From Escherichia phage Ec_YwIITB1, in sequence record PQ356294.1: a stretch of DNA of 64,000 nt; one strand, 5' to 3'. Positions 21,303 through 40,720 of the stretch are shown here, one piece after another. The notes under the pieces are model-generated. The model ran no database searches. It was not told the DNA's origin and saw only the letters and a program-made list of their open reading frames with translations. How positions within the stretch are numbered: the first letter of the stretch is position 1; the number at the start of each line of letters is the position of its first letter. The position numbers and the translations under genes were made by a program.

Positions 21303-21821
21303 TCAATAACCTCGGTCTTGACGAGCGAAGTTTTCAGCATTTTTCAAATAATAAAGTTTAAAGATTTCTTCAGCCGTAAGACCGAGACCTTGGAACATGT
21401 TTAGAACGAAATGAAGAATATCAATCATTTCGAATTTAATTTCCAACTGGTCTTGTGGAGACAAATCAGTAATTAAAGTTTCACGTCGTTCACCATGCTG
21501 AGCTTTCCAAGGTTTCCATACAGCAGATGCATCTTTTTCACCATTGCTCATACCACCAAGAGAAGTCAATAGTTCGCGGAATTCATCATCAATATAATCT
21601 TTTTGATTACGCAGCCAATCAACAACTTCGCCTGCGGTAGCCAAATCATCAGGATGACGGTTATATTCAGGTTTATCTTTAGCTAAACGAACCTGCAAAG
21701 ATTTCTGCATATCAAGCATAACCTGCAGCGGGTCTTTTTCATCACCGAGAATATCCCAGTATTCATTTTGAGCTTTATCAGCGCCTTCGATCAGTTGTGA
21801 ACATTCATTAAAGTAAGCCAT
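21303..21821 (-). CDS. 56: dCTPase/dCTP pyrophosphatase (gp56)
   Basis: 172-aa ORF from ATG at 21821 (MAYFNECSQLIEG...), AAAGGAAA SD; matches T4 gp56 as recalled; track start 21914 is a GTG extension. Confidence 0.88.
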   Translation of the reverse strand: MAYFNECSQLIEGADKAQNEYWDILGDEKDPLQVMLDMQKSLQVRLAKDKPEYNRHPDDLATAGEVVDWLRNQKDYIDDEFRELLTSLGGMSNGEKDASAVWKPWKAQHGERRETLITDLSPQDQLEIKFEMIDILHFVLNMFQGLGLTAEEIFKLYYLKNAENFARQDRGY

Positions 21822-25947: not shown

Positions 25948-26304
25948 TTAAAAGAATTTAAATTTTTTCTTTGACCTTTTATTAAATGCATCTTGTAGTT
26001 GCATTGTAATACATTTTTCTACATGAGGAGCTAACTCAGCTTTTCTTTCTTGGTCAAGAACAGCAAAGTCCATTACGACTTTTCCATCAACCCAATCTAA
26101 TTTTGTCACATACACAATGTGTGTAGAACCATCTTCTAGTTTAATGACAATCTCCTGGATAACATTTTCCATGGCAGATTTAATTATCTTAAGAGATTCA
26201 TTAAAAAGACGTTCTTTTCTTTCTTCTTCCCCCTCCGAAGAGGGGGATTCATCGATAATTTCTAAATCTAAATCATCTTTATTCATTAAATTCTTCCATA
26301 TCAC
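25948..26304 (-). CDS. 40: gp40-like protein
   Basis: 118-aa ORF between uvsX and 41, as in T4. Confidence 0.6.
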   Translation of the reverse strand: MIWKNLMNKDDLDLEIIDESPSSEGEEERKERLFNESLKIIKSAMENVIQEIVIKLEDGSTHIVYVTKLDWVDGKVVMDFAVLDQERKAELAPHVEKCITMQLQDAFNKRSKKKFKFF

Positions 26305-27460
26305 TTAACTGATCTAGGTCAGTTTCTAAATCAGCTGCTGATTTACTTTTACTTTCTGGAGATTTAAATTTTTCAACCTTTGAGTTAATCAATTCATCAA
26401 CTTCAGCTTCAACAATTTCATTACTATCAATAGCACCTAACTGATAAGCACGTTTAATAGCATCTCGGAATGGCTGATGCTTGAATAAAGGACCCCAGAA
26501 TGTAGTGCAATTGGTATCTTTTGCACGCCAAGATTTTTCTTCGCGAATCATCTCACCAGTTTCTTCGTCAAGAAATTCACGAGCATACCAGCCATTTTTA
26601 GGTTTTACCACAAATCCTAATTCAAGAGCCATATCTAACAATCCAGAATAAGGATCGATGCCACCGTCAAATTTAACATCAATAAAGAATTTACTTTTTT
26701 CTTTAACGGTACGAGATTTTTCTACATTTAGAACAAATTGATACCCCTGAAGATCAGAACCATCTTTAATCTGGCGCTTACCGATAATGAATACAGTATC
26801 AGCCGAATACATTACGCCTGTACCACCTGTCATCACGGTTTTACTAAACATTTCAATTGTTTCAATTGTATGGTTAACCGCAACACATGGAATGTTTTTA
26901 ATACTAAAATAAGGAGTAACAATACGGAATAATGACTTCAGTGATTTAGCACGAGTCATATCTGCCACAGATTTTTCATTCAAGGCATCTTCCGTTTCTT
27001 TCTTAGAAGCCATATTACCAATTGAGTCAATGAATACAATAACTTTTTCACCACGCTCAATAGCTTCAAGTTGATTCACCATATCAATTTTCAGCTGTTC
27101 AACTGACTGGATTGGTGTGTGAATTACTCGTTCCGGGTCAACTCCCATGGATCGCAAATAAGCAGGAGTAATACCAAATTCGCTATCATAGAATAGACAT
27201 ACCGCGTCAGGATATTTGTTCAAATACGCCGCAACCATAGTCAAAGACATATTTGATTTAAAGTGTTTAGAAGGACCTGCAAAAATGGTTAAACCAGACT
27301 GCATACCACCATCAATTGCACCTGAAATAGCGATATTAAGCATTGGGATTTTTGTACGAATTACATCCTTTTCATTAAAGAATTTAGATGTAGTCAGTTC
27401 AGCAGTCATTTTAGAAGTGGAAGCTTTAATCAAACGGGATTTTAAATCTGCAATAGACAT
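26279..27460 (-). CDS. uvsX: UvsX recombinase (RecA-like)
   Basis: 393-aa ORF with RecA fold motifs (GPSKHFKS Walker A); close to T4 UvsX as recalled. Confidence 0.93.
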   Translation of the reverse strand: MSIADLKSRLIKASTSKMTAELTTSKFFNEKDVIRTKIPMLNIAISGAIDGGMQSGLTIFAGPSKHFKSNMSLTMVAAYLNKYPDAVCLFYDSEFGITPAYLRSMGVDPERVIHTPIQSVEQLKIDMVNQLEAIERGEKVIVFIDSIGNMASKKETEDALNEKSVADMTRAKSLKSLFRIVTPYFSIKNIPCVAVNHTIETIEMFSKTVMTGGTGVMYSADTVFIIGKRQIKDGSDLQGYQFVLNVEKSRTVKEKSKFFIDVKFDGGIDPYSGLLDMALELGFVVKPKNGWYAREFLDEETGEMIREEKSWRAKDTNCTTFWGPLFKHQPFRDAIKRAYQLGAIDSNEIVEAEVDELINSKVEKFKSPESKSKSAADLETDLDQLSDMEEFNE

Positions 27461-27537
27461 TCATTTTTTCCATAGGCATCATTATATTTTCCTCACTGGT
27501 TAAAGATAAAGTAATTATAACACAATAAATTTAGGCA

Positions 27538-28386
27538 TTAATCAACTGCTATTGGATGAATAGCATTAAACTTATGAAACGCTTCTGATTTTTCTTTGCG
27601 CGAAACACACATGCGAAGAACCTTTAATGGCTCGTCTTCTTCACCTAATGATTTTCGTTTTTCAATATTAGAAGTTTTCCAACGAGCTTGCTCTGGAAAC
27701 TCTCTATTGATTTGCTCAAGCGCTCTATTATGTTTAGAATTACTACGAATTGAGCTACATCCGCCAGGAGCTTGCGCTTTTCCAGATACAACCAGATATT
27801 TGAACAAGGCCAAATGCGGATAACCTTGATTAATTAAATTGAGAAATGCATACATATCTTCGCATAAATCAATTTTTCCATACCCAATTTGTTCTGTTGT
27901 AAGTTTCCCGAGGTCATACCAAGTATTCGTGAATCCATATGAATTTTCACGATAATTACCCCAAGATGAAGTAATTTTAAAAATTGGTAAACGAGCATGA
28001 CCATGATAATACCCGCAATCCATTGCATCTTCAACGTATTGAATCAATTCATAGAACTGTTCACGAGTTAATTGATTAATTTTATCTACGCAGCGACGAT
28101 CATCTTTCTTTCGCATTGAACTCATACGAATAGTAGTATCATCATCAATCATCCAAATTCGTTGACCTGCATACATATCAGTAATCGCTTTACGAGTACC
28201 AGCAATTCCATTAACATCATCAGGAATAGTTATAATTTTAGCTCTAGACCCGTAAGCGTCATAATAAGCTTTTTCTTCATGTTCACGTACTACAATATGT
28301 GGTTCATAATCAGTCGGAAACATATCAAGGGCAGAAACTGCCCCTACACGTTGATAGCTTGGAATTACGAATTGAATCATTTCCAC
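27538..28386 (-). CDS. putative DNA glycosyltransferase (GT-A-like, DDD motif) in the beta-gt locus
   Basis: 282-aa ORF between uvsX and gene 42 with IWMIDDDTTI (DxD-type) motif; not the 351-aa T4 beta-gt as recalled. Confidence 0.6.
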   Translation of the reverse strand: MEMIQFVIPSYQRVGAVSALDMFPTDYEPHIVVREHEEKAYYDAYGSRAKIITIPDDVNGIAGTRKAITDMYAGQRIWMIDDDTTIRMSSMRKKDDRRCVDKINQLTREQFYELIQYVEDAMDCGYYHGHARLPIFKITSSWGNYRENSYGFTNTWYDLGKLTTEQIGYGKIDLCEDMYAFLNLINQGYPHLALFKYLVVSGKAQAPGGCSSIRSNSKHNRALEQINREFPEQARWKTSNIEKRKSLGEEDEPLKVLRMCVSRKEKSEAFHKFNAIHPIAVD

Positions 28387-29117
28387 TCACCATTATAATC
28401 TTTTTTCGCAATATGAGTTTCACCAGTTTTCCACCAATGGTCAACCAAATAAAAATGACGGGAATACACATGAAGGCTCCCGACATTCCATATAATGGAA
28501 CCTGCTTTATACTGGCGAGTTGAATCGCCTGCATTCAAGTCAGATACTAATTTATCTAATACATATTTTTGCCATGCATAATCATTACGGAATCCGAAGA
28601 CAACGTCATTTGAACGCATGCTCACTACTGCATTGACTTTCTTATCACGAATCAGGTATTGTACTGTATTCGTACACATGAAATCTGACATACCATCTTT
28701 ATTGTAGTCAAATTGCATGGATGGACGAGTATAAATCATGATACCGCGTCGAGAATCAGGATTTTGACCAAGTTCAGCTAAACACATATCATACTGGGCA
28801 TAGTTATCTTCTGACCAGATGGCCCAACCATAATTCGAGTTAATTTCGCCTTTAGAAGATGCTACCTGTTGCCAAATCTTCGGCGTTTCACCCGGAATAT
28901 CTTTAACAAACAAACTTTTAGATTTATACCATTCAAGTTCACGCTGAATGTATTCATCATTAAGAGCGCCAAAAATAAAAGGTTCATCTGCTACAAATGA
29001 TGCACCAATAATTTCAATAGTTTTAACGCCAGTTTTATCAATTACGAAATCTTTTTCCTTTAACGCAATTCCCAAATCAAGACGAGTTTCTTCAACTGTC
29101 AAATAATCGTTAATCAT
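28377..29117 (-). CDS. 42: dCMP hydroxymethylase (gp42)
   Basis: 246-aa ORF with thymidylate-synthase-like fold; T4 gp42 length. Confidence 0.9.
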   Translation of the reverse strand: MINDYLTVEETRLDLGIALKEKDFVIDKTGVKTIEIIGASFVADEPFIFGALNDEYIQRELEWYKSKSLFVKDIPGETPKIWQQVASSKGEINSNYGWAIWSEDNYAQYDMCLAELGQNPDSRRGIMIYTRPSMQFDYNKDGMSDFMCTNTVQYLIRDKKVNAVVSMRSNDVVFGFRNDYAWQKYVLDKLVSDLNAGDSTRQYKAGSIIWNVGSLHVYSRHFYLVDHWWKTGETHIAKKDYNGEWK

Positions 29118-29270
29118 TTAAACCTCAATTGATGCATTCATATTTAACTTGTAACAGTAATAAACTCCACCCTATAATAAGCGTTGGAATCATACAAGGA
29201 ACCGTTACGCTATAGTATATACTTATTATAATCATCAAGATTAAAAGCAATACTGTTAAAATTTTGCTTT

Positions 29271-29522
29271 TCATTCCTTCTCTCTGATGATAATTACTTG
29301 ATTTGGTTGTGCGGATTTTTTAGTTTCACCTGCAATTGACCAAATAAATGTAATAAACCAACCAATAATTGACCAGTTAAACAGTAAAGATGTGAAAAAG
29401 ATTCCTACTGTCGATTTTGACCCACGCATCAAGGCGATGAACCACGGAAGCATGTATATAATAATAGCCAACACGCCTGAAACTAAAACCATAAAAATTG
29501 AACCCGCTACTAAAGTTTCCAT
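29271..29522 (-). CDS. imm: Imm immunity (superinfection exclusion) membrane protein
   Basis: 83-aa two-TM ORF METLVAGSIFMVLVSGVLAIIIYMLPWF; T4 Imm length. Confidence 0.85.
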   Translation of the reverse strand: METLVAGSIFMVLVSGVLAIIIYMLPWFIALMRGSKSTVGIFFTSLLFNWSIIGWFITFIWSIAGETKKSAQPNQVIIIREKE

Positions 29523-39502: not shown

Positions 39503-39518
39503 AAGGGCCGAAGCCCTT
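39503..39518 (-). terminator. UUCG hairpin 3' of alpha-gt
   Basis: AAGGGCUUCGGCCCUU adjacent to the stop codon. Confidence 0.45.
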
Positions 39519-40720
39519 TATTTTGTAATAATGTCAAACTGTTCTTTAAAGCAGAAGCTTGAATCTTGATGCTGATACAAAAATTCATAAGCTTTTTCGC
39601 GTTCACGGTCATAAAGATTTCGGTCAGATGACAGTTCTTTAATACGCTCAAATGTTGATTCCATGTCATTTTCATCAAACCAAACGATACCGCTATCATG
39701 AGAAATTAACGGAGTATTATCAACACGGAATTTTAAATTTTCACCAGTAGATTTCCAAAATACTGGAATTGTTCCGCATGCACCAAGCTCGAGATGAGTA
39801 TATTCTAAAGAACGCTGTAGATATTTTTTATCCAACTTACTCAGCTGATAACCAAATCCGGATTTACTCATGCGTTCAAGCATTTCGCTATTTACATAAC
39901 GGTCAAGAATTTGCGTTGGCAAATTAGGAGCAATTTTAATTTGGTCTACTTGATGAAGACGATAATACTCGTATGGAATTCCTTTTTCTTTAATAGGAAT
40001 GAACGCTGGAGAACGTTCCAGACCTTCCATAATAGTACTTAATCCCGCAGGTTTAAGATGTTTTTCGTGAAAATCAAACATCTGATAAAAACCTTTCCAT
40101 GTAGTCGTACGACCGATCCAACGGTTGACATTCACATTAATTTCAGAAACATCTTTCCAGTAGGTTGATCGAACCTTCGCAATATCCATAGGAGGCTGAA
40201 AGTTGTATACGGTCGGTGCTTCTTCAATATCATCAAATAGAGAAACTGTTTCTGGATACCATTCTTTCATCAGAACTTTATTAAAATCACCATTATCAGA
40301 ATGACTAAAAATAACATCAGCTCGACGAACAGTTTCTTCTAATCCCAAATTTCGGCGCAAAGAAAGAGAAGAATGGTCATGTTGATAAACTACAACACGA
40401 ACCGAAGGTTTAATGTTATCAATAATTTTTTTATAGTTATTAATAGTGTCTTCTTCTACTGAAGTAGCAGGAACTGAATTGATAATTAGAATATCACAAT
40501 CATTTACCAGCTTAAGTGTTTTATCGTATTCTTTTGCCAATAAAACCGGAATTGAAAATGATTTATAATCATGCGCGCAATTACGGGTAAATGATTTATC
40601 TTTAGCATAAACCAAAGTTACTTCATGACCATTTTTAATAAACCAATCACGCTGCTCGAGAGAAAATTTAGTTACGCCGCAACCTTCAAGACCTCGAGCC
40701 ATAAAAATGCATACTTTCAT
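39518..40720 (-). CDS. agt: DNA alpha-glucosyltransferase (alpha-gt)
   Basis: 400-aa ORF at the alpha-gt position downstream of gene 55; T4 alpha-gt length. Confidence 0.85.
   Translation of the reverse strand: MKVCIFMARGLEGCGVTKFSLEQRDWFIKNGHEVTLVYAKDKSFTRNCAHDYKSFSIPVLLAKEYDKTLKLVNDCDILIINSVPATSVEEDTINNYKKIIDNIKPSVRVVVYQHDHSSLSLRRNLGLEETVRRADVIFSHSDNGDFNKVLMKEWYPETVSLFDDIEEAPTVYNFQPPMDIAKVRSTYWKDVSEINVNVNRWIGRTTTWKGFYQMFDFHEKHLKPAGLSTIMEGLERSPAFIPIKEKGIPYEYYRLHQVDQIKIAPNLPTQILDRYVNSEMLERMSKSGFGYQLSKLDKKYLQRSLEYTHLELGACGTIPVFWKSTGENLKFRVDNTPLISHDSGIVWFDENDMESTFERIKELSSDRNLYDREREKAYEFLYQHQDSSFCFKEQFDIITK

Follow-up and report, generated by a model that had tools for sequence, protein, structure and literature searches.

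The host defences to which a phage is open are set by the pattern of sugars on its hmC; among these defences are type IV enzymes such as GmrSD and BrxU, the Brig1 glycosylase targeting alpha-glucosyl-hmC, and CRISPR nucleases. In the pathway described for T2 and T6, alpha-gt gives alpha-glucosyl-hmC, and ba-gt then adds a beta-1,6 glucose to form gentiobiosyl-hmC, whose share of hmC is 5% for T2 and 72% for T6, with 25% bare hmC in both phages (PMC6024577; PMC11078745; bioRxiv 10.64898/2026.02.25.707755). Deletion of ba-gt in T6 leaves alpha-glucosyl-hmC only and makes the phage more sensitive to Brig1 (PMC11078745). In a 2026 HPLC/MS study, furthermore, ten environmental Tequatroviruses all contained substantial gentiobiosyl-hmC: seven, including Solly, had about one-third hmC, about two-thirds gentiobiosyl-hmC, and a trace of alpha-glucosyl-hmC, and the proportions in the other three, including EL, were roughly 1:2:2 (PMC13390438). 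Like T6, the Durham Tequatroviruses have alpha-GT and TAGT without beta-GT, which T4 carries at a position syntenic with TAGT (PMC13390438). The synteny of ba-gt is hence already in print, and for T2, T6, and hundreds of their relatives both this arrangement and the gene with its product have been described.

In the window analyzed here (i.e., the whole stretch of 64,000 nucleotides from Escherichia phage Ec_YwIITB1), the minus strand holds an uninterrupted ORF at 27538..28386, which was described in the first-pass annotation as encoding 282 amino acids; this is the length when the ORF is read from a GTG. The reverse complement of 28377..28386 reads directly as GTG GAA ATG A, and the ATG at 28380 shares ATGA, a 4-nt overlap, with the TGA stop of the upstream gene 42 ORF. 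In T2, EL, and Solly, the homologous CDS is annotated with a length of 843 nt, the same ATG start, and the same 4-nt overlap with gene 42. Because of this overlap and the identical start in the three phages, the start of the gene is likely the ATG at 28380, with a product of 280 amino acids (27538..28380, minus strand); translation from the GTG at 28386 would lengthen this product by two residues. The ORF described first is therefore present and uninterrupted, but its length needs to be revised to a probable 280 residues.

We are highly confident that this gene encodes a T2/T6-type beta-glucosyl-HMC-alpha-glucosyltransferase (ba-gt, also ggt; we take it to be EC 2.4.1.28), which adds the second glucose to give gentiobiosyl-hmC. 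In a megablast search with the 849 bases of the ORF, 479 phage records were matched, and in 476 of these the match spanned 80% or more of the query with an identity of at least 90%; nearly all of the records were Tequatrovirus, of Escherichia, Shigella, Yersinia, Salmonella, and Citrobacter, and many annotate the gene as beta-glucosyl-HMC-alpha-glucosyltransferase. The protein is identical end to end at 276 of 280 residues to T2 ggt and at 274 to its T6 counterpart (98–99%), as had been anticipated in the first-pass annotation, which proposed a second glucosyltransferase in the style of T2 and T6; 273 and 278 residues are identical in EL and Solly, respectively. Profile searches matched PHROG 842 (beta-glucosyl-HMC-alpha-glucosyltransferase) at E = 1.9e-89 over residues 2–277 and also Pfam TAGT (TET-associated glycosyltransferase, PF20691, a GT-A-fold family) with a score of 38.8 bits, above the curated cut-off of 27.5. 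Given the E-value for PHROG 842 and the 476 phage records matched, the ORF is far beyond chance. No NCBIfam model matched either ba-gt or alpha-gt, and a Pfam “RNA_binding” match to ba-gt (E = 0.15) was below the cut-off and dismissed as chance.

The ba-gt genes of T2, T6, and Solly match the window gene in the length of the product (280 amino acids), in their place between uvsX and gene 42, and in the ATGA overlap, and the window protein differs from their products by point substitutions only, with DDD and every invariant column retained. More distant homologues in other Straboviridae and metagenomes (e.g., PS2_041 of Serratia phage PS2) belong to the same Pfam family with 29–78% identity and share the conserved columns of the window protein, among them DDD, R11, and the C-E-D region. 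Sugar specificity does vary among phage DNA glycosyltransferases, since RB69-type phages arabinosylate cytosines (PMC6024577; PMC13390438), and the broader TAGT family is tied by its Pfam name to TET-type hypermodification pathways. Transfer of another sugar such as arabinose, or use of a non-DNA acceptor, is nevertheless scarcely conceivable for the window enzyme, because a shift in specificity is hard to reconcile with its 98–99% identity to enzymes of phages with chemically shown gentiobiose.

In T4, the place between uvsX and gene 42 belongs to beta-gt (351 amino acids), which has in common with ba-gt the dependence on UDP-glucose, the beta linkage, and the decoration of hmC DNA. No sequence similarity between the two proteins was, however, detectable by BLASTP (best E = 3.4), nor was there a full-length alignment, in agreement with the first-pass view that the slot holds a different enzyme; a tblastn search with T4 beta-gt against the whole 64 kb also found nothing (best E = 0.13). 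A sequence search of the PDB gave no solved relative of the window protein (the best hits, at E = 0.76, were RNA-binding proteins that are not related to it), and the fold thus had to come from prediction. The predicted structure matches GT-A glycosyltransferases (nucleotide-diphospho-sugar transferases) and not the two-domain GT-B fold, which is that of T4 beta-gt. Confidence in the model is low at residues 87–100, 130–149, 194–210, and 278–280, and details of the active site are blurred. The IWMIDDDTTI motif pointed out earlier is encoded at 28129..28158, and within it D79-D80-D81 (GAT-GAT-GAT, 28138..28146, minus strand) forms a DxD-type motif, which follows the strand RIWMID at the end of the predicted strand E74–79 and is invariant in the alignment of homologues.

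Considering the shared slot and the naming of the gene as “b-gt” in some records (e.g., PP01), one might ask if the window protein is a functional stand-in for T4 beta-gt that puts a single beta-glucose straight onto bare hmC. We regard this as very improbable: in addition to the missing similarity and the other fold class, beta-glucosyl-hmC was absent from T2, T6, and the ten environmental Tequatroviruses with this gene (PMC11078745; PMC13390438), and the T6 deletion mentioned above left alpha-glucosyl-hmC only (PMC11078745). The acceptor of ba-gt is alpha-glucosyl-hmC, in contrast to the bare hmC used by T4 beta-gt, and gentiobiosyl-hmC has been found chemically in phages with a near-identical gene (PMC13390438).

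The surroundings of the gene are also those of ba-gt. Downstream, uvsX (26279..27460, minus strand; 90% identical to T4 UvsX) marks the syntenic slot and is separated from ba-gt by an intergenic spacer of 77 nt (27461..27537, minus strand); this spacing and the layout of uvsX, ba-gt, and gene 42 are identical in T2, T6, EL, and Solly, whereas T4 has segA beside its beta-gt, with further spacers, in place of the 77 nt. Indeed, segA was said at the outset to be missing from the locus, and a tblastn search with T4 SegA found nothing in the whole 64 kb (best E = 5.1), neither between uvsX and gene 42 nor elsewhere. No hidden homologue of segA, mobB, or dam was detected by tblastn anywhere in the window. 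The lack of segA and mobB homologues implies fewer homing-endonuclease insertions in this region than in T4, and in the absence of dam the window is like T6 and Solly but unlike T2, T4, and EL. The 24 kb around ba-gt are 96–98% identical to Shigella and Escherichia Tequatroviruses. Consensus scans for a dedicated promoter or terminator of ba-gt gave no signal above the shuffled background; together with the ATGA overlap, this suggests that ba-gt and gene 42 probably share a transcript and that their translation is coupled.

The genes of the hmC pathway co-occur with ba-gt in the window, namely gene 42 for dCMP hydroxymethylase, the source of the precursor of hmC (28377..29117, minus strand; 94.7% identical to T4 gp42 by tblastn), gene 56 for dCTPase (tblastn-aligned span 21306..21821, minus strand; 71.5% identical to T6 gp56 over 172 amino acids, E = 1e-82), and alpha-gt (39518..40720, minus strand). 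The last gene had been located correctly in the first-pass annotation and is full-length, encoding 400 amino acids with 361 identical in T4 (90%), 394 in T2, and 395 in Solly. In the pathway that we propose, the products of genes 42 and 56 would ensure that hmC takes the place of C in the phage DNA, and alpha-gt would put glucose on hmC in the alpha linkage to create the acceptor for ba-gt. A UDP-glucose-dependent GT-A enzyme, as ba-gt is predicted to be, would then add the second glucose in the beta-1,6 linkage to form gentiobiosyl-hmC. Formation of a beta linkage from UDP-alpha-glucose would imply an inverting mechanism, in which the DDD motif is presumed to bind the metal and the nucleotide-sugar; a possible source of the catalytic base, judging from GT2 enzymes, is the conserved C-E-D region (E174, D175). 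Since the window has no T4-type beta-gt, beta-glucosyl-hmC is not expected, and part of the hmC is expected to stay bare. The set of alpha-gt and ba-gt without beta-gt predicts the sensitivity profile of the phage, as a matter of routine annotation.

We also noticed that alpha-gt occurs in two sequence types, one comprising the window, T2, and Solly (394–395 of 400 residues) and the other T4, T6, and EL (361–363 of 400 identical to the window), which differ mainly around residues 240–300. This grouping does not track the split between T2 and T6 in gentiobiosylation.

How much of the DNA carries gentiobiose is a separate question, as the ratio of mono- to di-glucosyl forms is not derivable from sequence, given that the T2 and T6 enzymes are near-identical and yet their ratios differ widely. 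By analogy with Solly, to which ba-gt (278/280) and alpha-gt (395/400) are both nearly identical and which also has no dam, we predict with moderate confidence that the phage DNA has mostly gentiobiosyl-hmC and about one-third bare hmC, i.e., the pattern of Solly and T6. Alternatively, ba-gt could be intact but minor as in T2, where only 5% gentiobiosyl-hmC is made despite an intact gene (PMC6024577; PMC11078745), with the DNA mainly alpha-monoglucosylated and a few per cent gentiobiosyl-hmC. The identity to T2 (276/280 in ba-gt and 394/400 in alpha-gt) would be consistent with this, but both enzymes are closer to those of Solly, with about two-thirds gentiobiosyl-hmC, and substantial gentiobiosyl-hmC was present in all ten of the environmental Tequatroviruses measured (PMC13390438). 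Furthermore, the window protein has R11, invariant in homologues, where T2 has H11. A T2-like outcome is therefore rather unlikely, and the pattern of Solly and T6 is preferred. A ratio unlike that of any measured Tequatrovirus is more doubtful still: K92 and I101 of the window protein, which differ from T2, T6, and Solly and lie in or beside the poorly modelled loop 87–100, might alter the amount or the site of the second glucose, a possibility to which we give little weight.

As for residue 11 itself, Arg is present in the window (28348..28350), T6, EL, and Solly, and the column holds nothing but Arg across ten homologues, the most distant of which has 32% identity. H11 of T2 is a candidate explanation for the difference between 5% gentiobiosyl-hmC in T2 and 72% in T6. 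Both laboratory T6 records have apparent lesions in ba-gt that the window gene lacks. The gene in MH550421 (7138..7980) has a stop at codon 10, with the annotation restarting at M20, and that in AP018814 (4135..4974) has lost one GAT of GAT-GAT-GAT, changing DDD to DD. These lesions are surprising given the 72% gentiobiosyl-hmC of T6 and could be due to stock drift or sequencing error.

The first-pass annotation had also treated T4 as the norm and the window as the exception, and this framing should be reversed. In the genus, ba-gt is the commoner gene, found in 479 records as against 29 with T4-type b-gt, the latter mostly T4 and its very close relatives. The window gene is a typical ba-gt; its recognition is correct and useful for annotation, and is both already known and ordinary. 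In the course of these comparisons, we noticed that RB55 (KM607002) and RB59 (KM607003) have a b-gt identical to that of T4 labelled “beta-glucosyl-HMC-alpha-glucosyl-transferase,” and that the ba-gt gene of PP01 (LC348379) is named “b-gt.” Names alone are thus unreliable for telling b-gt from ba-gt.

Two further observations concern the genes nearby. The dCTPase of gene 56, at 71.5% identity to that of T6, is far more diverged than its neighbours (90–99%). Between gene 42 and imm, furthermore, there is a strongly hydrophobic ORF of 49 amino acids (MKSKILTVLLLILMIIISIYY...; 29125..29274, minus strand), which has a 4-nt overlap with the imm stop. Conservation of this sequence extends to T4, T2, and T6, in whose records the 153-nt gap is unannotated, and the EL and Solly records name the ORF “Phage protein.”
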